64,000 nt of DNA. Origin: Candidatus Cloacimonadales bacterium. GTDB taxonomy: Bacteria > Cloacimonadota > Cloacimonadia > Cloacimonadales > WRIO01. Where the stretch lies: assembly GCA_963678255.2 (NCBI GenBank), contig CAXXTW010000002.1:990260-1054259 (forward strand), given 5' to 3'. This document shows positions 45,226-62,432 of the stretch, piece by piece. Made by a program: the position numbers and the translations under genes. Under the pieces are notes generated by a model, which was given only the letters and a program-made list of their open reading frames with translations, did no database searches and was not told where the DNA came from. Every line of letters begins with the position of its first letter. Position 1 is the stretch's first letter.

Positions 45226-45267
45226 AGTTTCAAAAATGTGTTAATCACTTTGTTATTAAAAGGAGCG

Positions 45268-46587: not shown

Positions 46588-47526
46588 TTTAACTACTAAA
46601 AAGACTAAGATAATTTAATGAACAGGCAGAAACCACGGATTTCACGAATATGCACGGATAGAACACGAATTAGCCACTGAGTTACACTGAGAAACACAGA
46701 GGAACACACCGATAAAAGATTTTCACAACCGCTGCGCTCGAGTACAAGAGAAAAGAGAGAGATGATAACAACTATAATTTTCCTAGTCTTCCTCTAATCC
46801 ACACTAATTTTCAAGAAAGATAAGAACAACCCTCCGGGAACCACCGAGTTTAGCGAATCACACAGAGGAACAACACTTTTTTAACTACTAAAAAGACTAA
46901 GATAATTTAATGAATAGGCTGGAACCACGGATTTCACGAATATGCACGGATAGAACACGAATTAGCCACTGAGTTACACCGAGAAACACAGAGGAACACA
47001 CCGATAAAAGATTTTCACAACCGCTGCGCTCGAGTACAAGAGAAAAGAGAGAGATGATAACAACTATAATTTTCCTAGTCTTCCTCTAATCCACACTAAT
47101 TTTCAAGAAAGATAAGAACAACCCTCCGGGAACCACCGAGTTTAGCGAATCACACAGAGGAACAACACTTTTTTAACTACTAAAAAGACTAAGATAATTT
47201 AATGAACAGGCAGAAACCACGGATTTCACGAATATGCACGGATAGAACACGAATTAGCCACTGAGTTACACTGAGAAACACAGAGGAACACACCGATAAA
47301 AGATTTTCACAACCGCTGCGCTCGAGTACAAGAGAAAAGAGAGAGATGATAACAACTATAATTTTCCTAGTCTACTACTAATCCACACTAATTTTCAAGA
47401 AAGAAAAGAACAACCCTCCGGGAACCACCGAGTTTAACGAATCACACAGAGGAACAACACTTTTTTAACTACTAAAAAGACTAAGATAATTTAATGAATA
47501 GGCTGGAACCACGGATTTCACGAATA
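46588..47526. repeat. 292-bp tandem repeat: 3 full copies plus a 60-bp partial fourth
   Basis: Copy starts (aactactaaaaagactaag...) at 46591, 46883, 47175 and 47467, an exact 292-nt period. Copies are more than 97% identical. Two variants alternate in an A-B-A-B pattern. Confidence 0.92.
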
Positions 47527-47733: not shown

Positions 47734-47823
47734 CTACACAAATTTCTACCAGAATTTTGTTTTTACAAACGAAATGAGAGAATCTCCCTGTGGAATTCCT
47801 CTTTCCCTTATACATTCAACAAA

Positions 47824-48158
47824 GTTGAAAGCCCCTGCAGCGCTTACAGGTCAATTCTACTCTTCAAATTGTTCGACGCTAGAGGAATTTAAACAATGTC
47901 GCAACCCCTGCAGCGCTTACAGGTCAATTCTACTCTAAAATCAAAACTATCGTTACTCATAATGGACAATTGTCGCAACCCCTGCAGCGCTTACAGGTCA
48001 ATTCTACTTAACGGTTAAAGTAGACCAAGAGATTAATGCCGAATATGTCGCAACCCCTGCAGCGCTTACAGGTCAATTCTACATACTAGAATATGTCTTA
48101 AAAATGAGACTAAAGTCTTTTAGTCGCAACCCCTGCAGCGCTTACAGGTCAATTCTAC
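47824..48158 (-). CRISPR. CRISPR array 1: 5 repeats, with the leader-distal one degenerate, and 4 spacers
   Basis: 36-nt repeat, plus strand GTCGCAACCCCTGCAGCGCTTACAGGTCAATTCTAC, at 47898, 47972, 48047 and 48123, plus a degenerate copy at 47824. Spacers are 37, 38, 39 and 40 nt. Minus-strand orientation is inferred from the repeat 3' end ...GGGGTTGCGAC and the cas gene direction. Confidence 0.95.
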
Positions 48159-48280
48159 CGACTACCTTTTTTACCCGCTCTGGGAGTGGGTTTGAAGGGT
48201 GCTTTGCGCGAACCTCAAAAAAAAGAGCAAAAAACACCCCTTTTTTTGAGTTTTTTCTATAGGTTCGCGCAAAATGGTTT
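48159..48280 (-). promoter_or_regulatory. CRISPR leader 1, between cas2 and array 1
   Basis: About 115 nt nearly identical to the sequence flanking array 2 (51901-52017). Contains a long imperfect palindrome. Confidence 0.6.
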
Positions 48281-48489
48281 TCCACACTATGATTGTTCAA
48301 AATTATTATATTTTTTATTGCATGTCAAGTAGTTTAATTTAAATGTTTAATAAAACCCTGCCTCAATAGTCAAAGGCGATATTGAGACAGGTCATTCTTC
48401 TCTTGTTCATTCATCCCTTTTTTTGTCCTTTTTTCTTTTTCTCCTCTTAGGGATATCACTTTTTCATTTCGGACATATCAGGAGATATC

Positions 48490-48753
48490 TTATAATACAA
48501 TTAGCATTTCATGCTGATCATTAACTGCCACAGCTTTTTGCTCGCAGGATGAACATAAGGTGAAAACATGTATCTTCCCATTCTTCTGGTTGATTTTCTC
48601 CAGTTGATTCATAAACCAATTTATATTCTTTGAGTTGATATTAGCTACAAAAACAGATTCCTGAATCCTTAAACCATGTTTTTCCAAAAACTTTGAGAGA
48701 CGATAACGAATCTTATCATTAGGGATGTCATATGCAATCACTCTTTTCATCAT
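48490..48753 (-). CDS. cas2: CRISPR-associated endoribonuclease Cas2
   Basis: 87 aa. The N-terminal VIAYDIPNDKIRYRLSKFLEKHGLRIQESVF pattern is typical of Cas2. Overlaps the cas1 stop. Confidence 0.9.
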   Translation of the reverse strand: MMKRVIAYDIPNDKIRYRLSKFLEKHGLRIQESVFVANINSKNINWFMNQLEKINQKNGKIHVFTLCSSCEQKAVAVNDQHEMLIVL

Positions 48754-51395
48754 TACCTCAACCGATAGGTTTTATATTCCACACCAAGAACAATGCTATT
48801 ATGCAAAGAACTGACAGTTTCATCCAATAATCCATAATGGGTCATAACTTTATCATGATATTTCAATACCTGATTCATTGACCATTCAAAACGATTGAGA
48901 AACTTTTTAAACCCTTCATTATTTAAACGAGTACATTTGCCACCATGTGTTGAAAAATCAACAAAATCTTCAGGCAGAATCTGATGATTATGGATCAGAT
49001 GCAGGATAACTCTTTCAGGAATAAAACGAAGTGGTTCCATAAGATCTGAAGCAAGGGCTTTATGTAAACCTTTCACTATATGATAAACACCCTCATAAGG
49101 ATAGTATCCTTTACTAATTAATACTTCACAAAGCCTGTTATATAGTAATGTATAACCCAGAGAGAGCATTGCATTAACAGGTCCCACAGGAGGATAGTAT
49201 TCTCTTTTCTCAAAAGGGAATGGGGTTGTCAGTTTTCTGAAATGCCGAAAATACTCTGCAGAGGCTGCTCCTTCTTTCCCACGAATAGAATCAATATTAT
49301 CCATATTTGAGATAGAGTTTAAAATTTCCTGTAACAATTCTGATTTTATCTCTCTCTTTTGAAGCATCATTTTCTGATTATGAATCTTGGCTTCAACGAT
49401 TGTTTTGATAAAATTCATAACAAAGTGATCATAATTGTTGCCTCTTCTCTCAACTAATTCTTTGATATTTATCCATTTGATTATATTGTGAAAAGCACCT
49501 TTGGGATTTCCTAATATATCAGAAAAGATAATTCCTTTTTGATACTCCAAAGCTTTTTTGATAACAGATGCACTAACTCTGGGCTTTCCAATGATTACCA
49601 GCCTTTGAATTTCCTTCCAGGGTATCTTTCTTTTTTCTGAATCCATTTCAATGACAAGCGTTTCCCCCTCCGTCCTGGCATAGGAGTTATAATAAGAAAG
49701 ATAAACAGGAATTCCACCCAATCTGTTTTTATCAAAAAGATGAGTCCAGGTAGGATCAGTATTTTCCTGACATTTAATAGATCTGGCTTCACCATTCTGA
49801 ACCAAATGACCTAAAAATTCAAAAGGAATATTCGGATCAACCTTGACAGTTTTATCAATAGACAGCTTTAAATCATATTTAATCAATACATTTTCTACAA
49901 ACTGAAGGATCTGATCATTATTTTCTTTACTGAGAATAAGAATATCGTCAGCAAAACGTACCATTCGAAAAGGTTTTTTTTGTAAATCCTGATCAAATCC
50001 AATCATATAGATATTCGACAATAAAGGAGACAGGGCATTTCCCTGATTTAACCCGATCTGATCCTCTGTGAAAATTTTTCGAAGAATGCCCAATAGGGGA
50101 TCAAACAGAAACAAAGCCTCTAATATCAGAAATATACTTTTTAAAGGGATACTGTCAAAAAAAGATTCGATATCAACTTTTACACCATATCTAAAGCCTT
50201 GATCATACAGTTCTTTCACTCTTTGCACAGCTTTATGGTAGCCCATTCCGCTTCGATAGGCATAAGAGTCTGAGGACATTAATTCATCACAGGAATTTGC
50301 TAATAATTTAGCTAAATTCTTAAAAACAAAGCGATCAGTGAAATTAAAAACACTTATTGTTCTATATTTGCCATTTTTCTTTTTTTTATGAAAAGTTTGA
50401 AATTCAGAGGGGATAAAGGTATTGTTTTTTAACTTTTCAATTAATTTATTGATATAATCCTCTTTATTTAAAAGCACATCATTCAGGTTAATGCCATCAA
50501 AATCAAGGCTTTCCTGATCCATGTCATTAAGATGCTCTTCTAAATAGGAATGGGTGGTCATCTGCAGAAATAGATTTTTAATAGATCTAAACTCATCATA
50601 AAAGATATCATTCTTTAATGATATTCTATACTGACCAAAACCAAAGCTTGTATTTTTTCCAATACCTGCTGTCTGCCCCCATACCAGCAATTGAATCAAC
50701 TCTTCTGAAAACCTGCCTTTTATAATCAAACTACCAATGATTCCACCTAAAGAATTTTTGTATGCCATATCCACCCAGATGAATTGCTTGTTCGACAGGA
50801 TATATTCAGTAGAAGATTGAAGTTTTTGTCCTGATTTAATCTCAATTATTCTGAGAAAATCATTAAAATTAAAGTAATCAGAATCATAGTATTTATGCCC
50901 CTTTTCTTTATCCTGATCAGGTCTTTTCAGCCTTAAAGGGCTGATGAAGATCACACGAATTTCATCTGATGAAGTTAATTTTTGAAGAGAGTTTTGATCA
51001 AGAGGAAAATTGTATTTCGTGGTTGGATTATTCAAATTTTCATTTGGATCAAGGGCCTTAATGAGTTCAACCGTTTTGTTAATAATGAACTGTCCGGATT
51101 TACCATAATTAACCTGTTCACCGGATTGAACAGCCTGAATCCAGGCTTGAATATTATCAGAAATATCTTCAGGGAAAAACATTAAAAGAGATATCTTGTC
51201 ACCTGGAAAGTATTCAATAATGCCCTTATTTACAGGCAGAATTTTAATGTTACTTTCAGAAAGAACATTAAGCTGAATATTATTCAACCAGGGTCTGATG
51301 GAATGACTTATTCCTGCATACCACTGAACTCCGCTATATAATAAAACATGATCTATTTTTTTTATGCACTTGAATTCCAGTTGAAGGCATTTCAT
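48753..51395 (-). CDS. cas1: Cas6-reverse transcriptase-Cas1 fusion protein. Start set at the ATG at 51395, after a GGAGAAGGGGGG RBS; the track's TTG start is at 51419.
   Basis: Cas6 G-rich loop GIGKNTSFGFGQY. RT motifs: RTISVFNFTDRF, YAYRSGMGYHKAV, VDIESFFDSIP, GLNQGNALSPLLSNIYM, VRFADDILILS. Cas1 region: NAMLSLGYTLLYNRL, ALASDLMEPLRF. Confidence 0.88.
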   Translation of the reverse strand: MKCLQLEFKCIKKIDHVLLYSGVQWYAGISHSIRPWLNNIQLNVLSESNIKILPVNKGIIEYFPGDKISLLMFFPEDISDNIQAWIQAVQSGEQVNYGKSGQFIINKTVELIKALDPNENLNNPTTKYNFPLDQNSLQKLTSSDEIRVIFISPLRLKRPDQDKEKGHKYYDSDYFNFNDFLRIIEIKSGQKLQSSTEYILSNKQFIWVDMAYKNSLGGIIGSLIIKGRFSEELIQLLVWGQTAGIGKNTSFGFGQYRISLKNDIFYDEFRSIKNLFLQMTTHSYLEEHLNDMDQESLDFDGINLNDVLLNKEDYINKLIEKLKNNTFIPSEFQTFHKKKKNGKYRTISVFNFTDRFVFKNLAKLLANSCDELMSSDSYAYRSGMGYHKAVQRVKELYDQGFRYGVKVDIESFFDSIPLKSIFLILEALFLFDPLLGILRKIFTEDQIGLNQGNALSPLLSNIYMIGFDQDLQKKPFRMVRFADDILILSKENNDQILQFVENVLIKYDLKLSIDKTVKVDPNIPFEFLGHLVQNGEARSIKCQENTDPTWTHLFDKNRLGGIPVYLSYYNSYARTEGETLVIEMDSEKRKIPWKEIQRLVIIGKPRVSASVIKKALEYQKGIIFSDILGNPKGAFHNIIKWINIKELVERRGNNYDHFVMNFIKTIVEAKIHNQKMMLQKREIKSELLQEILNSISNMDNIDSIRGKEGAASAEYFRHFRKLTTPFPFEKREYYPPVGPVNAMLSLGYTLLYNRLCEVLISKGYYPYEGVYHIVKGLHKALASDLMEPLRFIPERVILHLIHNHQILPEDFVDFSTHGGKCTRLNNEGFKKFLNRFEWSMNQVLKYHDKVMTHYGLLDETVSSLHNSIVLGVEYKTYRLR

Positions 51396-51636
51396 AGTCC
51401 CCCCTTCTCCTAACTTCAATTAGTTAAACAACAGAATTCAGTAAATCGCAGGATCTAAAAACATCTTTTGGTTTATAAATGTACAATGTACTTCCAGTTG
51501 CGTTTCTTCTGCTCATAAATGTTTCCGGAATATCATGTTACATATCGCAATCCATCATTTAACAATATAAAACTCAGCATCAACCTGATGTTCTCCCACT
51601 CACCAAATTACTTTTTTAAATTATAACTTCAACGAA

Positions 51637-51900
51637 GTTGAAGCCCCTGCAGCGCTTACAGGTCAATTCTACGAAAACGTAGTTTGTGAAAAATTAGAAA
51701 TAAATAAAAAAGTCGCAACCCCTGCAGCGCTTACAGGTCAATTCTACTAAAGAAATATCAATTCAGGCTGAAACAAGGAAAGGCATACTATAGTCGCAAC
51801 CCCTGCAGCGCTTACAGGTCAATTCTACGAATCAAAGGAGGGAACCATCTGAGATACGCAGAAAGTCGCAACCCCTGCAGCGCTTACAGGTCAATTCTAC
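51637..51900 (-). CRISPR. CRISPR array 2: 4 repeats, with the leader-distal one degenerate, and 3 spacers
   Basis: Same 36-nt repeat at 51712, 51793 and 51865, plus a degenerate copy at 51637 (gttgaagcccc...). Spacers are 39, 45 and 36 nt. Confidence 0.95.
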
Positions 51901-52020
51901 CGACTACCTTTTTTGTCCGCTCTGGGAGTGGGTTTGAAGGGTGCTTTGCGCGAACCTCAAAAAAAAGAGCAAAAAACACCCCTTTTTTTGAGTTTTTTCA
52001 ATAGGTCTGCGCAAAGCCAA
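51901..52020 (-). promoter_or_regulatory. CRISPR leader 2
   Basis: Near-identical copy of leader 1: cgactacctttttt..ccgctctgggagtgggtttgaagggtgctttgcgcgaacctcaaaaaaaagagcaaaaaacacccctttttttgag... Confidence 0.6.
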
Positions 52021-52415
52021 TTTTCACAGTCTATAATGATCCCAAAATTACCTTTCCTGATAAACCAGTCAAGATAATTTTCTATCTAATGCATGAATGA
52101 TATTCCTGAATTTTGCTAATTACAGATATTATCGCATGTAAACCACATTCTTAGACTTTTAAGATCATCCATCCTGATATTATTTTCTGAATTCACAAAC
52201 CAGTCATTCATCATACTAATAAATCTAGCAAATTCATATAATTTAAAACATTCTTCCTTTCAGTTAATGGAAGTCAATCTTAGTTGATTGACATTCAACA
52301 TCTTCACATATATTTGCCATTTGATTCAAAATATACCCAAAATCAAACTTAATATTGATTTTGTAGTCATAAATTTTCCATATCATCATTTCAAAGGATT
52401 GTCAAATTAATTTTC

Positions 52416-52445
52416 AAAAAAAAACCCGGGTTTTCACCACGGGAC
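52416..52445 (-). terminator. Weak terminator candidate after the Gly-zipper gene
   Basis: Minus strand has CCCG...CGGG (a short stem) followed by a run of 9 T. Confidence 0.3.
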
Positions 52446-52485: not shown

Positions 52486-53319
52486 TTAATTATCGAAAAT
52501 AGATTTAATAAATGAACAGATCCCTATTCCCACGCCAATAGTAACGGCAATTGGAGTAAGAACCACTGCACCTGTTGCGATTACCCCTGTTGCTCCTATA
52601 GTTGTAAGACCAGTGGCAATTGCCCCACCAGCAAATGTTCCTGCCGCACTTCCAGCTGCTGCTGATATTGCTCCTATTGATGCGCTTTTTGCTACACTAC
52701 CTGCAGCTTCTCCGATGGAGTGTTCTCCGTCAATAACACTTTTTATTTCACAAATAGCCGTTATACCTGCCGAAATTGCAGCACCACCGAAAGCACTTCC
52801 TTTTGCAGCAGTCTTACAGGCATTACCTATTCCCGACAATCCATTAACCCCTGCTTTAGCTGCTAATGCTGAAGTTGTATTTGTTGAGATACCAGATGAA
52901 GTGACTGTTTTTTTAATTCCTTCTTTAGTTAGTTTTTCTCCAATATTTTGGACGGTTTCTTTTGTACCAAAAATCTTTGCGGAATTGTACTGTCCTGATT
53001 TTATTTGCGAAACAACTTTCCCCACTGAAGCAGGAGTATCTTTAGCCTGAATTCGGCTGATGATTTTTCCGCCTTGTTTAACTACGACATCAACAGTTTT
53101 TGCATTAGTACTTTGAGTTAATTGAGCATTAATTCCCTTAATGATATTCAAAGGATTGGCATTAATTCCGTCTTTGATGAGAATTTCATGAATGATTCCT
53201 TTTAATTGTGGATTATTTCCTGCACGATTGAAAGCTTCAGCAATAACTTTTCCTTCATAACCACTTCTGACTGTATTGTTAACGGCACTGGTAAATTGAT
53301 CTTTAGTTCTGTTTTCCAT
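52486..53319 (-). CDS. Membrane protein with a soluble N-terminal domain (about 150 aa) and a Gly/Ala-rich glycine-zipper C-terminal region. Putative CRISPR-associated membrane effector.
   Basis: ATG at 53319, preceded by a GGGAGGG RBS and a sigma54 promoter. The C-terminus GAISAAAGSAAGTFAGGAIATGLTTIGATGVIATGAVVLTPIAVTIGVGIGI contains repeated small-xxx-small motifs. Confidence 0.6.
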   Translation of the reverse strand: MENRTKDQFTSAVNNTVRSGYEGKVIAEAFNRAGNNPQLKGIIHEILIKDGINANPLNIIKGINAQLTQSTNAKTVDVVVKQGGKIISRIQAKDTPASVGKVVSQIKSGQYNSAKIFGTKETVQNIGEKLTKEGIKKTVTSSGISTNTTSALAAKAGVNGLSGIGNACKTAAKGSAFGGAAISAGITAICEIKSVIDGEHSIGEAAGSVAKSASIGAISAAAGSAAGTFAGGAIATGLTTIGATGVIATGAVVLTPIAVTIGVGIGICSFIKSIFDN

Positions 53320-53352: not shown

Positions 53353-53368
53353 TGCAGTACCTGTGCCA
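53353..53368 (-). promoter_or_regulatory. Sigma54 (-24/-12) promoter of the Gly-zipper gene
   Basis: Minus strand reads TGGCACaggtacTGCA, with GG/GC spacing identical to the consensus TGGCAC-N5-TTGCA. It sits about 35 nt upstream of the ATG at 53319, directly downstream of a sigma54-type activator gene. Confidence 0.6.
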
Positions 53369-53439
53369 TTTTATAAAGAAGATTCTAAATATTTTATTAT
53401 TATATAGTTATGTAATAATAGAATCAGATAAGCATAAAC

Positions 53440-53478
53440 TATAGATTGATAAAATACACTTAAAGTTTATAATCTATA
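53440..53478. promoter_or_regulatory. Candidate upstream activator site (imperfect inverted repeat)
   Basis: TATAGATTgATAAAa-N9-AGTTTATAATCTATA, centred about 95 nt upstream of the -24 element. The AT-rich context makes a chance occurrence plausible. Confidence 0.25.
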
Positions 53479-53507: not shown

Positions 53508-55085
53508 TTACTTATCTTTGTTAGATGTTTTATTGTGGTAGTCTTTGAGCCATTTCGATAAAGCTTGTGGAGTTATTTTTAAGACTTCAGCGACAAGATT
53601 TTGTTTTCCATTATATTGATTGAGCAAACAGTTAATAGCTTTAAATCTTATTTGGGCAATTTCCTTATCTAAATCAATAAAATCATTTTTCTCCATAACA
53701 ATGTTTAAATCATCCTGTATTGGGAAATGTAGAGTATCTGGTAAATCAGTAAAGAAATCCTGATGAAATACATTTTGCTTTAAGACTGTTTTATTAATCA
53801 TAATGTCATCTGAATTAAAACAGCATCTTTTTATTACAAATTGTAATTCTCTAATATTTCCTTTCCAGAGGTATTTTTTTATAAACTCTTGACCTTCATC
53901 ATTCAACACTTTTTCTACATAAGATTTATTCATTTTTTTAAATTCATTGTTACATTTTGTAAGAATCTCTTTGGCTATTTCTATAACATCTGTGCGCGTT
54001 CTCAAAGGTGGCAGATCAATCACAACATCAGCCAGCCGATAATAAAGGTCTGGTCTGAGTTTTTGAGGACTATGAGTGGCAGATATAATTCTAACATCAA
54101 CCCCTATATCCTCTACAGAACCAACTTTTTTTATTTTTTTTTCCTGGATGGCTCTCAGTAGTTTGACTTGTGAAGTTTCAGGCAAATCACCGATCTCATC
54201 AATGAATAATGTCCCTCCGTTCGCAGACTCAATTAATCCAATTTTTTCTTTATCTGCACCGGTAAAAGCACCTTTGACATGACCAAATAATTCTGATTCT
54301 ATAAGAGTCTCAGAAATGGCGGAAATGTTAAATTCTACAAAGTTATTTTTTCGTTTTGTTGTTTTCTCATATATTTTTCTGGCATAGTATCCTTTTCCAG
54401 TTCCTGTTTCACCTAAAATTAAGACATTTACATTATTGTAACAAGAAAGTTTATCTACCATTAAATTAATAGCGTTTATCTTAGGATCCGAACATTCTTT
54501 ATTAATAAAATCAGTCATTTTTGAATCTATATCCAAATAAGATTCTTCATGCTTTTTTAAATTCTCTTTCATCCTCTTCAATTTGATATCCAACTCAAGC
54601 GGGATAACATATTTCTCACATTTTGTTACATCATTTTTTTTATCATACCAGGATTGAAGTAACGAGGCTCGATTTTTTGCTATGGAGATCAAAGTCCAAC
54701 AAACCTTCATAATATCTGTTCCTGATGTTGTGTTAAAACTGAGATCATCATCAATTTGAAGAAAACCCTCGTTATACAGATTAGTAATTGCATTTTCAGT
54801 CATTCTGAACACAGCATTTATATCTGCAGCATTGAATTTATCTGTTTGATAGCTTTCGATCTTTTTGTAAGGAAATGCCTTTCTCAATGCATCAAGATAT
54901 TCTTTAAAAGACTCATAATGCCAATTATCCTTCTTATTTTGCTGATCATCTAACACAATTACTTTTTGAAAATCAAAAGTATTTGAGAATAACAAAGCTT
55001 CCAGAGGTGCCATTCTATTTTTCATTTCAATTTTGGTTTCAAAGTCATGAAACCCCAACCAGGAGATTAAACAATTTTTTTGCAC
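53508..55085 (-). CDS. RtcR-like transcriptional activator: N-terminal CARF-type sensor domain, sigma54-interaction AAA+ domain, C-terminal helix-turn-helix (HTH)
   Basis: GTG start after an AAGAGG RBS. N-terminal CLISWLGFHDF and FNTTSGTDIMKVCWTLI parallel the E. coli RtcR ITTGTHVAQICWFLL segment. LILGETGTGKG (Walker A), ESELFGHVKGAFTGA, GGTLFIDEIGDL (Walker B). C-terminal QNLVAEVLKITPQALSKWLK (HTH). Confidence 0.8.
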   Translation of the reverse strand: MQKNCLISWLGFHDFETKIEMKNRMAPLEALLFSNTFDFQKVIVLDDQQNKKDNWHYESFKEYLDALRKAFPYKKIESYQTDKFNAADINAVFRMTENAITNLYNEGFLQIDDDLSFNTTSGTDIMKVCWTLISIAKNRASLLQSWYDKKNDVTKCEKYVIPLELDIKLKRMKENLKKHEESYLDIDSKMTDFINKECSDPKINAINLMVDKLSCYNNVNVLILGETGTGKGYYARKIYEKTTKRKNNFVEFNISAISETLIESELFGHVKGAFTGADKEKIGLIESANGGTLFIDEIGDLPETSQVKLLRAIQEKKIKKVGSVEDIGVDVRIISATHSPQKLRPDLYYRLADVVIDLPPLRTRTDVIEIAKEILTKCNNEFKKMNKSYVEKVLNDEGQEFIKKYLWKGNIRELQFVIKRCCFNSDDIMINKTVLKQNVFHQDFFTDLPDTLHFPIQDDLNIVMEKNDFIDLDKEIAQIRFKAINCLLNQYNGKQNLVAEVLKITPQALSKWLKDYHNKTSNKDK

Positions 55086-55094
55086 AAAGACCTC

Positions 55095-56735
55095 TTATAA
55101 AACTATCTGTATTATTAAATGTATCAAGTCCAAACCGATTTCCCTTTCGGGAGTTAAATGATTAAAATCTTCACCATAAACATTTTTTGCGATCGTATGA
55201 AAGATTGTATCTTCAATTAACAGGGATTTTTCGAAGTTAAGGATATCTTCCCATTTGTATTGATCGCTGTTTATTTTTCTCATGATATCATTATATAGTC
55301 GGGTTATTTTTAAAAAATGAAGAATATTTTCTCTGATTTTAAAATTCCCTAATTGAGACATCCCCCGATGTATGAAAAAGTTTCTTTCATCTCTAAATTT
55401 TTGATAATTTCCTGTATAAATTAAACGAAATTTCTGATAAATATTTTTATTTTGTTTTAAAAATAAGGGTTTAAACTTTAGATTAAATTCATCAATAAGT
55501 TTTTGAAATTCTTGATTATTCGGACTATCTATCAGTTTATCAATCAGATTTATATTTATATCCTGTTCGAAGCCATTAATCAGTATTTTTTTCTCTTTAT
55601 CTGTAAAGAGTGAAGGATCAATATGTTTTTTTATGATAAATCTGAAATACTGATCTTCCAAAGAAACCAAAAAGACCGAAGCGGTTATAAAATCATCTTT
55701 GTAGATTGAGGAAAAAAACAAGGAAAAAAGATTGTAAAACCAGTTTTCCTTATTTTCTTTAAAATCTTTGATTTTTTTAAATAAAGCTTCGATGTCATTA
55801 AGAACAGGTTGATTGAGCTCAGTATTGACATAATTCTTTAATAGATTGTATTTTCTATCCGCATCATAAAAATCGTTGTTTTTGACAGACTGTATTAATT
55901 CCTTAAGAATTGTATAATAACTGTTGGCGTTTTTTGTAATCTTTAAGTAAGAAGAACTTTCAGTAATATAAACCGGAATAAGGTTTGCATTAATGAAGCC
56001 TGTATAGAGAATATTTTCAACCGCTTTTTGCAACAGTGGCAGTCCTCCTGCATAAAGTGAAAGGAAAATATTGTTTTCTGAGTCATCCATCTCTGAGAAA
56101 TCGAACAAACTGATGATTTTATTATGAAACTGCCTGGTTAAATAATCAATATTGTTCAAATCAAAGGATTTCAGATAATTCATCATTTGAGATGACGTTT
56201 CTATCACAACATTATTAAAATCTTCCTCGAAAATCTCACCAATTGACAGGATATCCACATCATCAATTTTTATCTTGTGATAGTTAGTAATCTCATCCAT
56301 TTTCATGATTATAAGTTCTGCAGTTTGTTTTGATTTATCATTCTGAATATATTTATTAACAAGATCCTTTGCAAAATCTGAGCAATCCTTCCATTTCTGA
56401 TGAAGTGATTCCTCTTTTGCTTTATTTATTAAAGTGAGATTATTTCTTCTATCTGTGACAATTAAAATTAGCTTATGAATATGGTTTTTACTGTGAATAT
56501 CTTTCAAGGCACTTAGATTTTTACTCAACATGGGAAAATCTAAACCTTTTAAATCTAACTCTTTTGTTTCTAACTTTTCTTTTTTTGGATTGATCTCTAT
56601 ATTGGTTTGCAAAAAAGGTAAAGAAACAAGATCTTTGATGTTTGAATTATTTATCTCTATACGAGTCAAATTCCCCTCATGATCAACAACTCCCATGCAG
56701 TCCCTTTGTCCTATGGTCATAAATAAAAGATTCAT
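55095..56735 (-). CDS. Csx1/Csm6-like ancillary protein with a C-terminal HEPN RNase motif. The N-terminal sensor domain is possibly CARF.
   Basis: HEPN R-x4-H motif in the Csx1-like context ERNFFIHRG. N-terminal MNLLFMTIGQRD resembles the first CARF strand. Translationally coupled (TAATG) to the effector operon. Confidence 0.55.
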   Translation of the reverse strand: MNLLFMTIGQRDCMGVVDHEGNLTRIEINNSNIKDLVSLPFLQTNIEINPKKEKLETKELDLKGLDFPMLSKNLSALKDIHSKNHIHKLILIVTDRRNNLTLINKAKEESLHQKWKDCSDFAKDLVNKYIQNDKSKQTAELIIMKMDEITNYHKIKIDDVDILSIGEIFEEDFNNVVIETSSQMMNYLKSFDLNNIDYLTRQFHNKIISLFDFSEMDDSENNIFLSLYAGGLPLLQKAVENILYTGFINANLIPVYITESSSYLKITKNANSYYTILKELIQSVKNNDFYDADRKYNLLKNYVNTELNQPVLNDIEALFKKIKDFKENKENWFYNLFSLFFSSIYKDDFITASVFLVSLEDQYFRFIIKKHIDPSLFTDKEKKILINGFEQDININLIDKLIDSPNNQEFQKLIDEFNLKFKPLFLKQNKNIYQKFRLIYTGNYQKFRDERNFFIHRGMSQLGNFKIRENILHFLKITRLYNDIMRKINSDQYKWEDILNFEKSLLIEDTIFHTIAKNVYGEDFNHLTPEREIGLDLIHLIIQIVL

Positions 56736-58717
56736 TAAAATCTCCTTTGATTTTGAGAGGGTTTGTTTTTAGGTTTAGGTTTATTAGAAACTAAGCTTTT
56801 TTCAGAAGACCCTGATCTTAGTTTAAAATCATCTGCTCTGATCTCAGAATGCCATTTCGGAATTTCACCATCTCTCTGAGGATAAGAAAATTCTTTTGTT
56901 TTTAATTTAAAAGAATCCTTCAGTTCTGATTTGTTTTCAAAAGAATGAGCATTAATAAAATCCAAGGGATTGAATGATTTTTGGTTTAATTTTGAATCCA
57001 GCACTATCATTTGATCGATAAATATCTTTACTGCCCCTAAACCGTAATTTTTACCATATCCTATTTGATGACATAATATATTTTCGTTTTCATACTGAGT
57101 GAATAAATCATTTTTTTTCTTATCATCAAGCTGAAGAGAAAAGCATAAAAGAGATAATTCATCTTGTGTTAAGTTGTTAAAATGCAACTTGAATTTAAAT
57201 TCTGGAAAAGAGTCTAAATTGTTCTTAATATTATGTGGTCTCACAACTTTCTTGAGACAGATCATCATTTTCTGATCTTCATCGGTTAATGATATGGGAA
57301 GATAATTTTTTGAGGAGCGTTTGTAAACTTTACGCCCGGATAAGACGGCTTTGTCGTGATCCTCTCTTGCCCGATCTCCATAAGTGATTAATGGTTTCTC
57401 TTCATTATCTGATTCTTCCTGTTTAAGATAAAACTCATAAGCACTTGGCATGGGTTGACCTGGTCTTTTGAGATTAAACCCATTTCTATCAATACTTCCT
57501 CCGGATATATATTGTGCATAATTGATGTGAATCTTTCCTGCTTTAGAATTTTGCACCTTATCTTTGTGGTTTTCATGTTTCAGCATATCTTCTTTAGTGA
57601 AACCGAACATTTCATAAAACCTGGAAATTCTGATTTCGTCATTTATTGTTTTGAAGAATTCATCTTTCAGATTATTCTTAACAATATCCTCCAAACTGTT
57701 TTGGTAAAGCCAAAGGTAATAGAAGTTTTTTCCAAAGGAAATAATCTGATCTTGTTCAGCATCATATTGAAAAATTATCGGTTCTCCGACTTTAAAGATT
57801 CGCATTTTCTCAATATTCTCTTTTATTTCTTTTTTTTCATCTTCATTAAAGTGAAAAGGATGTTTATTAACAAATCCGGATCCTAACTCATCAATAGTTT
57901 TATGATAATGATCTAAAATGTCCTGGTTCACTTTTAATTTTAAATGATCACCAAATTTTATAGCATCCGTAAATTTTTTTTTATTGAATCCAATACAATT
58001 ATGATGCTTTAACTTTGAGTTATTCTCTTTATCATGCTCTAAAAATTTATCAACCGTAAGTCCGTTTCCGACCCATCCATCAGGATAACTAAAGAAATAA
58101 TATGCTGTTTTACTATTACCAATCTTTATATTAGTCTCGTGTAATTTTTCGATATCTTTTTCATTAAATGAATTTAGTAATGGGTTTAAAGAAATATTTT
58201 TTAATGAAGAATCTTCGAACTTCAGAAGACCATCAATCGGCAGAATTTCCATACTGTCTTTTAAAACTTTAGTTATTATCCCGGCTCCGGTTATTAATCT
58301 TTTATTATCTTTGTTATCATGAAGTTTTGTGTATATATTGATGTTTGGTCTCATCATAAAAGATTGTTGATTAATTTTCCTAATGGGGACATTCAAATAT
58401 TGTTTCACGAAGGAAGCAACGGCTCCCTTTAAAGTATGAGGAGAGATTAGTATTTTATTGTTCATTTCCAAGGGATTGATGACAGTATATTCATTCTCTT
58501 GATCTTCATTTTCTTTCTTGGTGAGATTTCCAACTATTAAATGATTTAATGCATACAGGGAACAGTTGATAGACCCCGAATACAATTCCTCATCCCCTTT
58601 TAATATTTTATTGAATTCGGCAATGTTAACATAATCAGAATCTTCATGAGCTTTGACAGGTATAAAAGAATAGACTAAATTATCTTTAGCGGTTTTGATT
58701 TTATTATAAAGAGTCAT
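56735..58717 (-). CDS. Type III RAMP protein, Cas7 with a large insertion (Cas7-insertion-like)
   Basis: YSFIPV...YSGSINCSLYALNHLIVGN, PHTLKGAVASF, and G-rich loop GYGKNYGLGAV. Start set at the ATG at 58717, after a GGAGA RBS; the track start is 58747. Confidence 0.6.
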   Translation of the reverse strand: MTLYNKIKTAKDNLVYSFIPVKAHEDSDYVNIAEFNKILKGDEELYSGSINCSLYALNHLIVGNLTKKENEDQENEYTVINPLEMNNKILISPHTLKGAVASFVKQYLNVPIRKINQQSFMMRPNINIYTKLHDNKDNKRLITGAGIITKVLKDSMEILPIDGLLKFEDSSLKNISLNPLLNSFNEKDIEKLHETNIKIGNSKTAYYFFSYPDGWVGNGLTVDKFLEHDKENNSKLKHHNCIGFNKKKFTDAIKFGDHLKLKVNQDILDHYHKTIDELGSGFVNKHPFHFNEDEKKEIKENIEKMRIFKVGEPIIFQYDAEQDQIISFGKNFYYLWLYQNSLEDIVKNNLKDEFFKTINDEIRISRFYEMFGFTKEDMLKHENHKDKVQNSKAGKIHINYAQYISGGSIDRNGFNLKRPGQPMPSAYEFYLKQEESDNEEKPLITYGDRAREDHDKAVLSGRKVYKRSSKNYLPISLTDEDQKMMICLKKVVRPHNIKNNLDSFPEFKFKLHFNNLTQDELSLLCFSLQLDDKKKNDLFTQYENENILCHQIGYGKNYGLGAVKIFIDQMIVLDSKLNQKSFNPLDFINAHSFENKSELKDSFKLKTKEFSYPQRDGEIPKWHSEIRADDFKLRSGSSEKSLVSNKPKPKNKPSQNQRRF

Positions 58718-59132
58718 GATATAATCTCCAATTGTTTTTCTCGTCAATGAGAATGGTTAATGATTCATTTGGGATGTTTTTAAGTATTCCCAATTCATCA
58801 GCATATGCGTAACGCTTTTTATTATTCTTAATCGATCTAACAGTTACTTTTTTTACATTCTCATCAGATAATGATAATGTTTTAATAACTTCAAAATAGA
58901 CATCCCTATCTTGCAGGTAATAAGATCTCTGTTCATTTTCATTAAACAAAACAAGAATACTTAAATCTTTGATGCTTTGAAGTGTAATTTTGACATCCTT
59001 AGTAATAAAGAACATCCCGGCATGATCATTTCCCAGATTGTTTCTTAATTGATCGGTCCAGCCTCTTTCTCCAATAGCCCAATCACTGTTTTTAATTTTT
59101 TCTATCATATCAGTAAAAGATATTTTATTCAT
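58704..59132 (-). CDS. Small type III-D accessory subunit, Csx19-like by position
   Basis: 142 aa, located between two RAMP genes as in fused-subunit III-D loci. Has a GGAG RBS. No motif I can verify. Confidence 0.35.
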   Translation of the reverse strand: MNKISFTDMIEKIKNSDWAIGERGWTDQLRNNLGNDHAGMFFITKDVKITLQSIKDLSILVLFNENEQRSYYLQDRDVYFEVIKTLSLSDENVKKVTVRSIKNNKKRYAYADELGILKNIPNESLTILIDEKNNWRLYHDSL

Positions 59133-60414
59133 GATTCAGCTCCAATTCCCAAATAGGATAAGTTGAATGAGCTCCCAGAGAAATAACCCGGGCTTTCATT
59201 CCATTATTTATTAATTCAAACATTTGTTTCATTTCATCATTCCAGTCTTTTTTGTAAATTTTAATAAATCCTGAAAATGAGGTATAAAACAATGCTTCCT
59301 CATCAAACTTTGATGATCCTAAAACTGCTCTGGTAAATTCATCCTGAGCATGGTGATTGATGACAGCCAAATGATCCTTATTAAAGTTGTCTGGATAAAA
59401 ATCAGATATATATACCTTTCCTGCTGTTGCTTCTTTTTCTTCAGTTTGACCAAAAAAAATCTCGTTCCATTGAATATGACCATACTTTTCTAAAAATGCC
59501 GTAATAACCCCTTTAACCGATGAACCAGGAATTAGCAAACGAGTTCCATTATTCATAAAAACAGCATCTGGTTCAATATCATCTTTATTTCCAAGACTAA
59601 ACATAGCCTCTCCACCTCTTATCAGAAGAGTGTTGGTACCATACCCATCTGCTTCATCTTTTATAATTATCCTGAGAGGAATCTCAACAAATAGATTATT
59701 ATGTACTTTATTGTTGTCATCGTTAATATTCACATCTTTTTTCGGATAACAATTAAAACTTTTAAGAATAGCCCAACCACAACCGGAGCTTGAAAAAGCT
59801 CCAATAAACAGACCATCCTTTTCCCACGAGTTGAAGACTTTTTCAGCCCATGTTTTTAACAGATCAATATCCCATTTTTTAATATCATTTTCTGAAGCTG
59901 TAGGAACAATATCAGATGAGTCAAAATCAACAGGCAGATACTTGTCGGTATTGATAGTCATTTCCAAAGTCATCATAACTGGATTTTCATCTAATTCATA
60001 GGGTTCAATTTCCCAATGCGAAAACTTTGCTTTATCTTCAGCAGTTTTTCTGGATCTGTTAATTTTCACCCTGTCTCTGATAGCCGGTTTAACTTTTGCC
60101 ATATTAAAGAAATAAGTTGAAAACTCATAAGGACTTGAGAATGATTTCAAATCTGTTTCCCTTTCCTGATTACCTGACTCCTGATGATCAGCTGGAACGA
60201 TTTTTTTGTATTGATCAGTTGATTTTTCATTCTCTGTTAAGAGCTGATCAAGTCTATCAAAAAAAAGACCGGCAATACTGGTTCCGGGAATGATAAACTC
60301 ACCTTTTCCATTTCTGACCATATTTGCGGCACCTAAAGCATCTTCAATCAATCCGGAGCCAATATGAAGTGCTGTTTTCAATTGGATATCCAACTTATAT
60401 TTTATCTTACTCAT
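59125..60414 (-). CDS. Double-Cas7 RAMP fusion (Cas7-2x-like; Csm3/Cmr4 family)
   Basis: Two RAMP cores: LKTALHIGSG...FIIPGTSIAGLF and LLIPGSSVKGVITAFL. Confidence 0.65.
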   Translation of the reverse strand: MSKIKYKLDIQLKTALHIGSGLIEDALGAANMVRNGKGEFIIPGTSIAGLFFDRLDQLLTENEKSTDQYKKIVPADHQESGNQERETDLKSFSSPYEFSTYFFNMAKVKPAIRDRVKINRSRKTAEDKAKFSHWEIEPYELDENPVMMTLEMTINTDKYLPVDFDSSDIVPTASENDIKKWDIDLLKTWAEKVFNSWEKDGLFIGAFSSSGCGWAILKSFNCYPKKDVNINDDNNKVHNNLFVEIPLRIIIKDEADGYGTNTLLIRGGEAMFSLGNKDDIEPDAVFMNNGTRLLIPGSSVKGVITAFLEKYGHIQWNEIFFGQTEEKEATAGKVYISDFYPDNFNKDHLAVINHHAQDEFTRAVLGSSKFDEEALFYTSFSGFIKIYKKDWNDEMKQMFELINNGMKARVISLGAHSTYPIWELELNHE

Positions 60415-62419
60415 TATCTTCTCCTTTCAGAACTTCTCTGAGAATGAACCCTAAGATTTCATAATTGGATATGTTTGTTAACATTTTATTTAAAAGATCA
60501 AAAAGAAGATTATGATCTTTAACTTTTACTTTTTTCTCTTTTAGTAAATCATAAATAATGTTCAAGGGTGTACCAGCTTCAACGAATGTTAAAGTGTAGC
60601 GCAAGATTCTTTTCCATCGTTTCAAAGTCTTCATTGCTTTTAATTGATCAGAATAACTTTTCTTACAATCATGTTTTTGGGACATTTTAAGACAGAAATC
60701 ATCCTGTCTGGGAATATAGATCTCAGGGTTATCTGAGTTTTGGTTCTGGTTATTTATGCTATGTACAGGGTGGTTGATTCTTACCTTACCAAATCCTTCA
60801 TTTTTTCGTAAACCGATGCCTTTATCTAAAAGTTGTTTAAGATTGGCACGGTCTTCAGGAGATAAATTTATCAATTTATATTCAAAAACACTCCCGGCTT
60901 TGATTGCTTTCACCCCAAATCGACGGGTTCCACTTAATCCATGAAATGAATGAATAATCCTTGTTTCTGAATTGTGTCTCTTTAAAACGATTTTTTGATC
61001 TTCTGTAAGATGAATCTCTTTTGCAAAGTATCCCGGTTTAATGATTGAAGCAAAACTGCCATTTTCTTCGAGTAAAATCGCATCAGATTGTAAAGTCAAT
61101 ATGAAAATATCTTTATCTATGACAGAATCTTGGCTTATCTCAGTAAAGTAATAATCAAATATTTCAACAGGTTTTGACCCTCTGCCCAAATGCAGCCAGA
61201 CATTTTTATCTAACCATGGTTTCATTAGTCTTAAAAACGTATGTAAATCTTCATTATTTTGAAAAGTAACTGTCCCCTGAAAATAATTATTCTTCAATAC
61301 CTTCTCTTCTGTAAAAAGTGACTGATCACTTACAGCCTGTGTAGAGCTATCTATTTTATTCCTCATTTGAATTGTAACCGGAACAGAATAATAACTCATA
61401 TCTCCGTTTTTATTGATCAGATATCCACCAGAAAAACTTTTATTGGATTCGTTATTGTTTTTATCATTGATAAACTCATCTTTATCAATTTTATTCCCTA
61501 ATGATTTCAACGCCCAATGTGGTATGGGTTGATCTTTAAATCCATCCTTTTTCTTCTTTCTAGCAGTGAAAGGAATAGGGATAATATCAGGATTTTGATT
61601 CTGATCTTTAAAATAATTGATACAGTCAAAAGGAATAGGCAGAAAATTACTTACCATGATTCTCGAATCATTTAACATTGATAAATCCTGATCAGTTTTT
61701 GCCAAATGTACTCTCAGCATACCCAGCACGCTTGTACCGCTGAAATAATCTAAAGTTCTATAATGATTATTGTTAAGTAATGCGCCATCTGCAATGGTTA
61801 CGTTATCCTTTAATTGTAATATCAAACTGATGGAATTAGCAGAACTTTCAGACAAGGTAGCTTCATCAAAAGAATATTCATCAATACGGTGAACTATGTT
61901 TGATATAGAAATTTTCCCAATACCTCTGGTTCTGCTTCCACCAACTCTTTGAAGATTTAGTAAACTTTCTATTAACAAATCAGAAATTTTGTTTAAATCT
62001 ACAGAATCATTTGCCAGATATCTGATTTCACCATTAAATGAGCACCCTTTTTTAAGGCATTCAATGCTTCGTAAAGACTTATCTGTTGATTTACGGGTAT
62101 TTCTATCAATTCTGGTAAAGGTATGAATAATAAAGGGATATTCATCATCCTTTTTGTTATAACTGATTAAAATATCAAGAGATTGTTGATTTTTGTAGAA
62201 AAATAAGTTTGAATATTCAGATTTAAATTCAGGTTTTTGATGGATGATTTCATGAGCTGATTGCCTTAATAATCCTTTAAAGGTATCAAAGTTGAATATG
62301 GGGTCACCGTTATGATCTTTTGTAAAGCCATCATCATAAAGCCCCGGACAATTAAGCCCATTGCCAAGATGAATATCTTCCAAAGTTTCTATACTAAAGT
62401 TGATGTTTAATATTTTCAT
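60407..62419 (-). CDS. Multi-domain RAMP fusion, Cas7-Cas5-Cas11-like
   Basis: First RAMP: IHLGNG...FKGLLRQSAHE and GGSRTRGIGKISI. Second RAMP: FSGTSVLGMLRVHL and LRKNEGFGKVRI. Helical C-terminal tail of about 120 aa. Start set at the ATG at 62419, after an AAGGAGA RBS. Confidence 0.55.
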   Translation of the reverse strand: MKILNINFSIETLEDIHLGNGLNCPGLYDDGFTKDHNGDPIFNFDTFKGLLRQSAHEIIHQKPEFKSEYSNLFFYKNQQSLDILISYNKKDDEYPFIIHTFTRIDRNTRKSTDKSLRSIECLKKGCSFNGEIRYLANDSVDLNKISDLLIESLLNLQRVGGSRTRGIGKISISNIVHRIDEYSFDEATLSESSANSISLILQLKDNVTIADGALLNNNHYRTLDYFSGTSVLGMLRVHLAKTDQDLSMLNDSRIMVSNFLPIPFDCINYFKDQNQNPDIIPIPFTARKKKKDGFKDQPIPHWALKSLGNKIDKDEFINDKNNNESNKSFSGGYLINKNGDMSYYSVPVTIQMRNKIDSSTQAVSDQSLFTEEKVLKNNYFQGTVTFQNNEDLHTFLRLMKPWLDKNVWLHLGRGSKPVEIFDYYFTEISQDSVIDKDIFILTLQSDAILLEENGSFASIIKPGYFAKEIHLTEDQKIVLKRHNSETRIIHSFHGLSGTRRFGVKAIKAGSVFEYKLINLSPEDRANLKQLLDKGIGLRKNEGFGKVRINHPVHSINNQNQNSDNPEIYIPRQDDFCLKMSQKHDCKKSYSDQLKAMKTLKRWKRILRYTLTFVEAGTPLNIIYDLLKEKKVKVKDHNLLFDLLNKMLTNISNYEILGFILREVLKGEDNE

Positions 62420-62432
62420 AATTATTCTCCTT

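Follow-up and report, generated by a model that had tools for sequence, protein, structure and literature searches.

A candidate sigma-54-gated membrane accessory protein with a restriction-endonuclease-like head beside a type III-D CRISPR locus of Cloacimonadales

We analysed a stretch of 64,000 nucleotides (nt) from the genome of a Candidatus Cloacimonadales bacterium (contig CAXXTW010000002.1, positions 990,260 to 1,054,259 of the forward strand), hereafter the window, and in it one minus-strand gene, hereafter the target, that follows a type III-D-like effector operon of a CRISPR system. The best explanation, to which we give a probability of about 0.5, is that the target encodes a type III accessory protein that joins a cytoplasmic head of restriction-endonuclease fold to a Gly/Ala-rich membrane anchor and would act as a second-line effector gated by sigma-54. 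The evidence comes from the promoter and activator gene upstream of the target, from the modelled head and the hydrophobic tail of the protein, and from the recurrence of its family beside type III loci. Coordinates are collected in Table 1.

The gene, its promoter and the adjacent activator

A word-indexed protein search retrieved 59 homologues of the target at 36-60% identity. We also built a profile from the N-terminal domain and ran it on 1.84 billion representatives of protein clusters (50% identity), which resulted in 326 matches at E ≤ 1e-3, 257 of them at E ≤ 1e-10. Nearly all profile matches are 270-370 amino acids (aa) long and have the same architecture, with the domain at the N-terminus. 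Because the homologues and profile matches share architecture and length, the target is a real, conserved gene and no chance open reading frame (ORF). The ORF check gave exactly the gene limits proposed in a first-pass annotation of this DNA, which had been made from the letters alone: the ATG is at 53319 and the stop codon at 52486-52488, and all peptides quoted in that annotation are found in the target protein. A GGGAGGG ribosome-binding site lies 5 nt 5' of the ATG, and a 281-aa variant in the ORF list corresponds to a start at an upstream TTG. The plus-strand ORF at 52613-53050 (145 aa) is an antisense by-product of GCN/GGN-rich codons and no gene.

None of the Pfam, NCBIfam and PHROG models matches the target protein. 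PDB sequence searches with single-protein and profile queries also named no family; their best match, a subtilisin prosegment (E 0.013), was dismissed as noise. PADLOC returned a weak match of aa 31-142 to PDC-M72B, an uncharacterised defence candidate (2e-5).

The first-pass annotation had proposed that the gene is set apart from the effector operon by a specialised promoter of its own, and this proposal stands. The element TGGCACaggtaCTGCA, of the form GG-N10-GC, is the sole match in the window, with 0.04 expected by chance, and by its letters it is a near-consensus sigma-54 element. No sigma-70-type match was found on the target strand in the 188-bp spacer between the activator gene and the target, in a scan that does not cover Bacteroidota-type promoters. 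Sigma-54 promoters are silent unless an activator hydrolyses ATP. The gene immediately upstream encodes a predicted activator of this kind, an RtcR-like enhancer-binding protein. Its AAA+ domain has the Walker A motif GETGTGKG, GAFTGA at aa 272 and the Walker B motif DEIGD. Pfam annotates Sigma54_activat (3.4e-53) and a weak RtcR domain, the best PADLOC model is RtcR_PspF2--CARF_AAA_HTH (1.9e-101), and the PDB matches are NtrC1, ZraR and PspF. We do not regard the activator as a true RtcR, since it scores 251.5 bits against the NCBIfam RtcR model NF038308 (equivalog cut-off 650) and the gene downstream of it is the target, neither rtcB nor rtcA; it is RtcR-like only. It starts 9 nt after the preceding ORF and is therefore taken as the last gene of the effector operon.

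Inverted repeats that may be upstream activator sites lie 22-90 bp 5' of the -24 element, in an AT-rich region where chance matches are likely. A terminator-like hairpin (CCCGTGGT-GAAA-ACCCGGG, then T9) stands 43 nt 3' of the stop codon. Having both a sigma-54 promoter and its own terminator, the target would form a single-gene transcription unit. With a GG-N10-GC promoter near the gene and an activator with GAFTGA and a helix-turn-helix (HTH) immediately upstream, it is quite likely that expression of the target at the window locus depends on sigma-54 and this activator. A weaker sigma-54-like element, TGGTATagataTTGCA (22694-22709, minus strand), lies elsewhere in the window, inside the 3' end of the ORF at 22616-23596 and ~495 nt 5' of the next minus-strand gene.

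An activator of this type could also serve a protective gene. The target might be a Psp-like membrane-stress or damage-control protein under a PspF-like activator, or an off-switch that degrades the signal, as the name of the best PADLOC model and the resemblance of the AAA+ domain to PspF would suggest; the classic targets of RtcR and PspF are genes for repair or protection (PMC7790460; PMC4012209). The target, however, has no similarity to PspA-family proteins or known ring nucleases, the conserved nuclease-like motif described below would be unexpected in a membrane protector, and the family is present in loci that encode no membrane-damaging effector. We therefore consider protection improbable and prefer an effector under sigma-54 control.

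Head and tail of the target protein

The first-pass annotation described a soluble N-terminal part that it could not place in a named family. Solubility was borne out, as residues 1-150 are polar, with 32 charged residues and zero hydrophobic windows. As to the family, sequence-profile searches still name none, but a structure model gives a restriction-endonuclease-like fold. AlphaFold2 (AF2) modelled aa 1-155 of the full-length protein with high confidence (predicted local distance difference test, pLDDT, > 90 over most of the region) and the N-domain alone at pLDDT 87.5. The topology of the model is a-a-b-b-b-a-b-a-b-a, with helices at residues 4-33 and 39-54, strands at 63-67, 78-82 and 85-93, a helix at 99-107 and a strand at 115-118, and it contains the core alpha-beta-beta-beta-alpha-beta fold of the PD-(D/E)xK superfamily. 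When the N-domain model was compared with the PDB using Foldseek, the best match was EcoT38I (E 7e-4, probability 0.99), followed by MspJI, Can2 (two structures), YaeQ, VC1899 and Shedu SduA. Matches in BFVD were mostly entries labelled 'restriction endonuclease', 'nuclease', VRR-NUC, ERCC4 or Mrr. Foldseek with the full-length model gave nothing significant; significance was gained only with the N-domain alone.

Across 38 aligned homologues, 18 positions of the N-domain are invariant. The invariants include E22, R32, H44/E45, D77, Q91-x-K93-D94, Y111 and E121-T122. In the model, E45 lies on the first core helix, D77 directly before strand 2, Q91-x-K93 on strand 3 and E121-T122 after strand 4. 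The superfamily signature has an acidic residue on helix 1, D where strand 2 starts and (D/E)xK on strand 3. Compared with it, E45, D77 and K93 are invariant at the expected places, and an invariant Q91 occupies the position that is normally acidic (D/E). Because the hit lists agree and the conserved residues resemble the active-site pattern, we assign the head, on the basis of the model, to the restriction-endonuclease fold.

The first-pass annotation also described a C-terminal region dominated by small residues in small-xxx-small spacing. The composition is as described, with 23% Ala, 18% Gly, 14% Ile and 11 charged residues in residues 151-277. The spacing is not distinctive: small residues form 35 i/i+4 pairs versus 31.0 ± 2.8 in composition-preserving shuffles (p ~0.10), and spacings of 2, 3, 5 and 7 are as frequent or more frequent. 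Since the shuffles give near-equal pair counts, composition accounts for the apparent zipper. The tail begins with two amphipathic G/A helices that carry conserved K/E/D residues, continues with an uncharged stretch and closes with a conserved ...(W/F)D end. In the target, the uncharged run comprises 60 residues (aa 212-271, nt 52507-52686; Kyte-Doolittle 19-residue maximum 2.09), which by its length is long enough for a two-helix membrane hairpin. All 38 aligned homologues have an uncharged C-terminal stretch of 47-69 residues with hydropathy maxima of 1.65-2.39, and the mean content of Gly+Ala over their last 120 residues is 42%. These features of the sequence suggest that the target is probably anchored in the membrane. 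Weak precomputed tags for MamC (PF26373) on some homologues were judged to be compositional, as hmmscan of five of these homologues and of the target found nothing even at E ≤ 10.

The first-pass annotation had likened the candidate effector, by its composition, to membrane-inserting toxins and pore formers. An effector remains our reading, and the fold and active-site-like motif indicate that its chemistry may be nucleolytic instead of, or besides, pore formation. We put the chance that the target is an active nuclease somewhat short of even; that it is a pore former appears unlikely.

Among distant members of the family, P0185 joins the N-terminal domain to a C-terminus that resembles a DNA methyltransferase. 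In P0206 and P0147, signal peptides at the N-terminus would put the nuclease-like domain outside the cytoplasm. Several members have acidic D-x-hydrophobic repeats C-terminal to the membrane region.

Linkage of the family to type III CRISPR loci

We collected the loci of target homologues in 33 species-representative genomes, on 80 metagenome contigs and in 8 long-contig look-ups (handles such as L035 denote individual loci). A locus was counted as CRISPR-linked if an array or cas genes lay ≤ 10 kb from the target homologue. This was true of 9 of the 33 genome loci and of 36 of the 80 metagenome loci, where many contigs are < 5 kb and the panel of Cas queries was small; together, 45 of 113 loci (~40%) are CRISPR-linked. 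Seven of the eight long-contig look-ups were linked, six of them to type III and one at 7 kb from a type II-A locus and beside a mini-array. In eight CRISPR-positive loci that had not been typed, a PADLOC census of 104 neighbours detected Csm3, Cmr4, Cas7_IIId, Cmr6, Cas5_IIId, Cas6 and Cas1_IIIb, from which we typed these loci as type III. The CRISPR-linked hosts include Cloacimonadota, Burkholderiaceae/Zoogloea, Lachnospiraceae, Synergistota and Symbiobacteriaceae. The family thus recurs beside type III cas genes or arrays over a broad taxonomic range, in many lineages and several phyla, and the description of the gene as CRISPR-linked in the first-pass annotation is upheld.

The closest homologues (50-59% identity; L035/36, L050, L131 and L132) end the same III-D gene set as the target does in the window; the set is made up of a ~520-aa Cas10, three RAMPs, one protein of ~162 aa and one or two HEPN-motif proteins of ~540 aa. 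The Lachnospiraceae locus L012 runs from the array through the target, a 637-aa HEPN protein and Cas6 to Cas10 and the RAMPs.

About 60% of the loci show no CRISPR element within the available sequence, and their neighbours are heterogeneous. They belong to defence and mobile elements and include serine recombinases, integrases, DEAD/ResIII helicases, NB-ARC/STAND ATPases, TIR, NYN, RyR and AbiEii-like ATPases, as well as kinase-STAND and kinase-Card1-nuclease fusions, SNF2-NOV_C and PP2C. One clade is cargo of a Tn7-like transposon. The homologues could therefore represent an independent single-gene defence or selfish element that gathers in defence islands and has no functional tie to CRISPR. 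We hold this to be improbable, because the ~40% of CRISPR-linked loci is a lower bound, given the short contigs, and lies far above the level of a random gene; because the linked CRISPR type is consistently type III; because the place at the end of the same III-D operon is kept down to ~50% protein identity; and because the effector operon closes, immediately upstream, with a gene for a CARF regulator. The first-pass annotation had asked whether the homologues might be housekeeping envelope proteins unlinked to defence; their neighbours are defence and mobile-element genes. Relatives occur in 1 of 2.9 million viral contigs, in 1 phage record and in 0 plasmids, and this near-absence rules out a phage or plasmid origin of the family. 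Clustering the flanking ORFs of 30-130 aa yielded only lineage-specific ones and no conserved small partner (antitoxin or immunity protein). Overall, the target is very probably linked in function to type III CRISPR or defence.

Some neighbourhoods have further features. L034 (8516-10822) carries two tandem target paralogues (274 and 273 aa), each preceded by small ORFs, 5' of a III-D locus with Csx19 and with a 508-aa SAVED-domain protein nearby. In L039 (10001-20721) the target homologue is followed by a 316-aa protein, Prok-E2_E, a ThiF-type E1, Cas2, a reverse transcriptase (RT), Cas1, a WYL regulator, a NYN RNase and Cas6, which places a ubiquitin-like conjugation pair within the CRISPR neighbourhood. 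Proteins of ~100 aa with a RyR domain are encoded directly 3' of the target homologues in L023 (10833-11171) and L027 (4996-5301), two Selenomonadales-type loci that also encode kinase-Card1-nuclease fusions.

We compared the position of RtcR-like genes across the family, as co-occurrence with CARF regulators had been named in the first-pass annotation as a check. An RtcR-like gene adjoins the target in five lineages, the window included. It has the same direction as the target in the window and in L053/L129, where no CRISPR element is found in 10 kb downstream and the sequence ends upstream. It is divergent in L005/L054, on a short contig (2.7 kb); in L050 and L131, which are full III-D loci, L050 also with RT-Cas1, Cas2 and an array; and in L001, L002, L004 and L051, where a 71-aa HNH_3 gene lies in between and the module is Tn7-like cargo (Mu-transposase, TniB) with no CRISPR element ≤ 10 kb. 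A GG-N10-GC element is found 47-56 nt 5' of the ATG in four of these five lineages, that is, in the window and in three more. The elements are TGGCTC-ggaga-TGGCT in L005, TGGCTC-aggtt-TGGCT in L050, TGGCTC-tagtt-TGGCT in L131 and TGGAAT-gtgat-TTGCG in L053/L129. In L005, L050 and L131 the hexamer and pentamer are constant and the 5-nt spacer varies, and because the two boxes are kept while the spacer has changed, these elements fit a functional -24/-12 promoter. L132 has no adjacent activator and no GG-N10-GC element upstream of its target homologue, and L035 has no adjacent activator and only a weak element, 81 nt 5' of the ATG. The gate is therefore conserved in part of the family; it is lineage-specific and not family-wide. 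A single-sequence genome scan and a word-indexed search with the CARF domain gained no further RtcR-like regulators, and an alignment-based scan found the same Cloacimonadota loci again.

In L001 (1-16468), L002, L004 and L051, the module lies beside Mu-transposase, TniB and winged HTH genes, and loci of the L001 type encode downstream a TPR-ATPase (1432 aa), an AAA ATPase and an SNF2-NOV_C helicase.

Among the CRISPR-linked homologues, most are without an activator gene next to them, as would be expected if the target were a direct, post-translationally activated effector. Its N-domain would then bind a messenger or nucleic-acid cue and oligomerise, and its tail would open the membrane, as in Csx23, CorA and Cam1. 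NucC, a restriction-endonuclease-fold protein, binds cyclic tri-adenylate (cA3) and does so with no CARF domain. Conservation is strong at the polar residues of the N-domain, and type III membrane effectors that sense through domains other than CARF have been published (PMC11014256; PMC11229360). However, Pfam, NCBIfam and PADLOC searches detected no CARF, SAVED or other known nucleotide sensor in the target, the conserved residues fit the pattern of a nuclease active site and no known ligand pocket, and some members are encoded at a distance from any cyclase, as cargo of transposons or in defence islands. We judge direct activation rather unlikely, and equally so its corollary that the sigma-54 gate is an extra layer in a few lineages; control by synthesis through sigma-54 is the reading that we carry forward.

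In the window, the genes on the minus strand are ordered Cas10, Csx10-like RAMP, Csx7/Cas7 RAMP, 142-aa protein, TIGR03986 RAMP, 546-aa protein, activator and target. These are followed 3' of the target by the terminator, the leader and array 2, a Cas6-RT-Cas1 fusion, and the leader and array 1 (Table 1). The 546-aa protein has no match in Pfam, NCBIfam, PADLOC or the PDB sequences. It is homologous to the ~540-aa proteins of L035, L050, L131 and L132, which have the same position and share the invariant HEPN-type motif and the CARF-like N-terminus, and from these sequence features it is probably a divergent Csx1/Csm6-like HEPN RNase of a seemingly unrecognised family.

The target might instead take part in adaptation, as a membrane-tethered PD-(D/E)xK nuclease that prepares incoming DNA or RNA-derived substrates for Cas1-Cas2 or RT-Cas1. 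It would then be an analogue of Cas4, which type III loci normally lack. In the window, the array leader and RT-Cas1 are neighbours of the target. The L042 lineage and its many metagenome relatives have it directly 3' of cas2-cas1 and of an ORF of 62 aa, all on one strand and with gaps of 2-10 nt; in L085 and L096 it stands between Cas1 and Cas10, and in L035 and L050 it comes after RT-Cas1, Cas2 and the array. The nuclease-like fold would also suit this role. By contrast, stress-type gating through sigma-54 by a CARF activator would be unexpected for an adaptation factor, the family is also present without any CRISPR genes, the protein is not similar to Cas4/RecB-type nucleases and lacks Fe-S cysteines, and the cas2-cas1 operon arrangement belongs essentially to one lineage. 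There is thus little to recommend adaptation over a gated effector.

Table 1. Positions of the target, its control elements and the surrounding CRISPR features, counted from the first letter of the window (domain, promoter and terminator entries are predictions)
Feature	Position	Strand	Remarks
Target gene	52486..53319	minus	277 aa + stop; unnamed family
N-terminal soluble domain, aa 1-158	52846..53319	minus	restriction-endonuclease-like (PD-(D/E)xK) fold, by model
C-terminal Gly/Ala-rich region, aa 159-277	52489..52845	minus	from composition, hydropathy and alignments
Terminator-like hairpin	52416..52443	minus	
Sigma-54 (-24/-12) promoter	53353..53368	minus	TGGCAC-aggta-CTGCA, 49 nt 5' of ATG
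Candidate upstream activator sites	53390..53456		AT-rich inverted repeats, 20-nt arms 85% complementary
RtcR-like enhancer-binding protein	53508..55085	minus	525 aa; divergent CARF + sigma-54 AAA+ + C-terminal HTH
546-aa protein	55095..56735	minus	invariant R-N-x3-H-x-G (HEPN-type) motif, CARF-like N-terminus
Type III-D-like effector genes	56735..63977	minus	from NCBIfam and PADLOC
TIGR03986 RAMP	56735-58747	minus	
142-aa protein	58704-59132	minus	
Csx7/Cas7 RAMP	59125-60414	minus	
Csx10-like RAMP	60407-62449	minus	
Cas10	62433-63977	minus	GGDD intact ('LMLGGDDLLIV'), no HD domain
Adaptation module and arrays	47810..52028	minus	directly 3' of target
Leader and array 2	51622-52028	minus	4 repeats
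Cas6-RT-Cas1 fusion	48753-51419	minus	
Leader and array 1	47810-48286	minus	5 repeats

The two mini arrays have an identical 36-nt repeat and flank the Cas6-RT-Cas1 fusion gene. We read both on the minus strand because their degenerate terminal repeats are at the low-coordinate ends. A 165-nt block (last repeat and presumed leader) is duplicated between them at 93% identity. Between array 1 and the gene for a protein with a type IX secretion system (T9SS) sorting tail (45238-46410), a 292-bp unit is repeated 3.2 times at 97% identity (46588-47526).

Proposed mechanism and comparison with known systems

In the mechanism that we propose, the Cas10 complex, which has a GGDD cyclase site and no HD domain, would recognise invader RNA and produce a nucleotide signal. 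CARF domains sense nucleotide ligands, and HEPN RNases leave 2',3'-cyclic-phosphate RNA ends. The CARF domain of the activator may sense the Cas10 signal directly, or it may sense 2',3'-cyclic-phosphate ends of RNA left by the neighbouring HEPN-motif protein. Its AAA+ domain would then remodel the sigma-54 RNA polymerase waiting at TGGCAC-N5-CTGCA, and a burst of target synthesis would follow. The membrane-anchored protein could cut nucleic acid at the membrane, damage the membrane, or both, and the infected cell would be arrested in an abortive-type second line. The CARF ligand, the membrane insertion, the catalytic activity and the effect on the cell are the steps that we infer. We consider it an even bet that the target is a growth-arresting effector. 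A complete two-tier type III-D response, in which the co-transcribed CARF activator turns a cyclic oligoadenylate (cOA) or RNA-end signal into sigma-54-dependent synthesis of a membrane-tethered effector with a nuclease fold, from a promoter that is otherwise fully off, is a more tentative proposal and on balance a doubtful one.

Several findings weigh against this reading. The Foldseek TM-scores were all low (0.3-0.4), only one match per library reached E ≤ 1e-3, and sequence profiles gave zero matches to any nuclease family. With Q in the place of D/E, the head may have no catalytic activity and act instead in binding or sensing; E121 could stand in for the missing acidic residue, as in some restriction enzymes. 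The tail was modelled by AF2 as low-confidence helices. In the window, the target is as near to the adaptation genes and arrays as to the effector genes. The element of the L001 lineage (TGGAAC-gcc-TTGCT) is GG-N8-GC, 2 nt short and non-canonical for sigma-54. Most homologues, including those in the close loci of the same III-D type, L035 and L132, have neither the activator nor the promoter. The suggestion of the first-pass annotation that the gene is kept silent because it is dangerous does not hold as a general rule, and because most homologues are without the gate, the target is probably not lethal by mere expression and may need a further cue. Finally, the CARF domain of the activator has the motif 'FN(T/L)(T/S)SGT' without the basic residue after strand 4 that is usual in cOA-binding CARFs, which makes direct sensing of cOA by the activator uncertain. 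The absence of this residue is a trait of the RtcR lineage (PMC4012209).

If the proposal is true, the locus would provide the first link of type III CRISPR signalling to transcription by sigma-54 and bacterial enhancer-binding proteins (bEBPs), and the first CRISPR effector deployed by new synthesis, not allostery. Of the many accessory effectors with which type III systems are armed, those described are almost all allosteric, with a CARF or SAVED sensor fused to the effector. The pair of RtcR-like activator and effector, which also occurs as lone transposon cargo, would be a portable 'RNA-damage alarm' module. Two novelties are suggested: an effector family in type III loci of several phyla with a nuclease-fold head, a membrane anchor and no sensor of its own, and a wiring in which the CARF sensor is on a sigma-54 ATPase and the effector is made only once infection is detected. 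The locus also offers a concrete test case for the long-predicted control of defence by RtcR-like CARF activators, with cOA and cleaved RNA ends as the competing ligands. The family has no Pfam or NCBIfam model and merits addition to the annotation sets for CRISPR accessory and defence proteins.

We compared the target with the known effectors and with published descriptions of type III loci. Full-text literature searches, with Makarova et al. 2020 outside their scope, found no published description of the target family or of its arrangement. Neither a paper in these searches nor the 2025 CRISPR classification reports an RtcR-like or sigma-54 activator in a Cas10 locus; a mention in Makarova et al. 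2020 is possible. Shmakov et al. described uncharacterised membrane protein families in type III loci (bioRxiv 10.1101/270033), and the target family may be among them.

The target resembles Can1, Can2 and Card1 in its type III loci and its restriction-endonuclease-fold effector domain, and Can2 structures are among its top Foldseek matches. In contrast to these proteins, it lacks a CARF domain, its sequence is not detectably similar to theirs, it carries a membrane region that is absent from them, and its control is apparently transcriptional whereas theirs is allosteric. Cam1, Csx23, CorA and the predicted Cam2 and Cam3 are likewise encoded in type III loci and join a transmembrane region to a soluble domain in the cytoplasm, and arrest of infected cells has been proposed for them (PMC11229360; PMC11014256; PMC13294483). 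In the target the order is reversed, with the soluble head N-terminal and the membrane part C-terminal, and the head is nuclease-like, not a CARF, REC or CorA/Csx23 sensor. Unlike the target family, Cam3 is poorly conserved in its soluble domain and always lies beside Cami1, in III-B loci. The target has no profile match to Cam1, Csx23, CorA, Cam2 or Cam3 in Pfam, NCBIfam or PADLOC, and from the descriptions in the papers we rejected Cam2, Cam3 and the Crn4 ring nuclease as relatives. ShdA of the Shield system, a transmembrane helix joined to an RmuC-like PD-(D/E)xK nuclease, is likewise a membrane-anchored anti-phage protein of the restriction-endonuclease superfamily (cited in PMC11090510), but its anchor is N-terminal and is combined with a coiled coil and a domain of RmuC type, it is not CRISPR-linked and it shows no detected sequence relationship to the target. 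The resemblance to glycine-zipper toxins and MamC-type helices, which also have Gly/Ala-rich hydrophobic segments, is compositional only.

The activator in the window shares with RtcR-RtcBA and with predicted RtcR- or PspF-like defence activators the CARF-AAA+(GAFTGA)-HTH architecture and a sigma-54 promoter immediately downstream (PMC7790460; PMC9650030; PMC4012209; PMC11090510). Control of defence operons via sigma-54 has been predicted for RtcR-like CARF activators (PMC4012209; PMC11090510). The window differs from these systems in that the gene downstream of the activator is not rtcBA, a restriction-modification system or CoCoNuT, and in that the activator gene closes a type III-D effector operon. 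CalpL-CalpT-CalpS and Csa3 also turn a type III signal into new transcription. In the Calp system, however, a SAVED-Lon protease frees an extracytoplasmic function (ECF) sigma factor, whereas in the window sigma-54 would be the target of an enhancer-binding ATPase with a CARF domain; Csa3 belongs to the CARF-HTH factors, whereas the activator in the window would drive one dedicated effector gene via sigma-54. The target has no sensor domain of its own, as a cOA-activated effector would have, and the CARF domain is on the neighbouring activator instead. Compared with the known systems, which are type III ancillary effectors of a known kind, the target adds a new family and, with its activator, a proposed new wiring of regulation.

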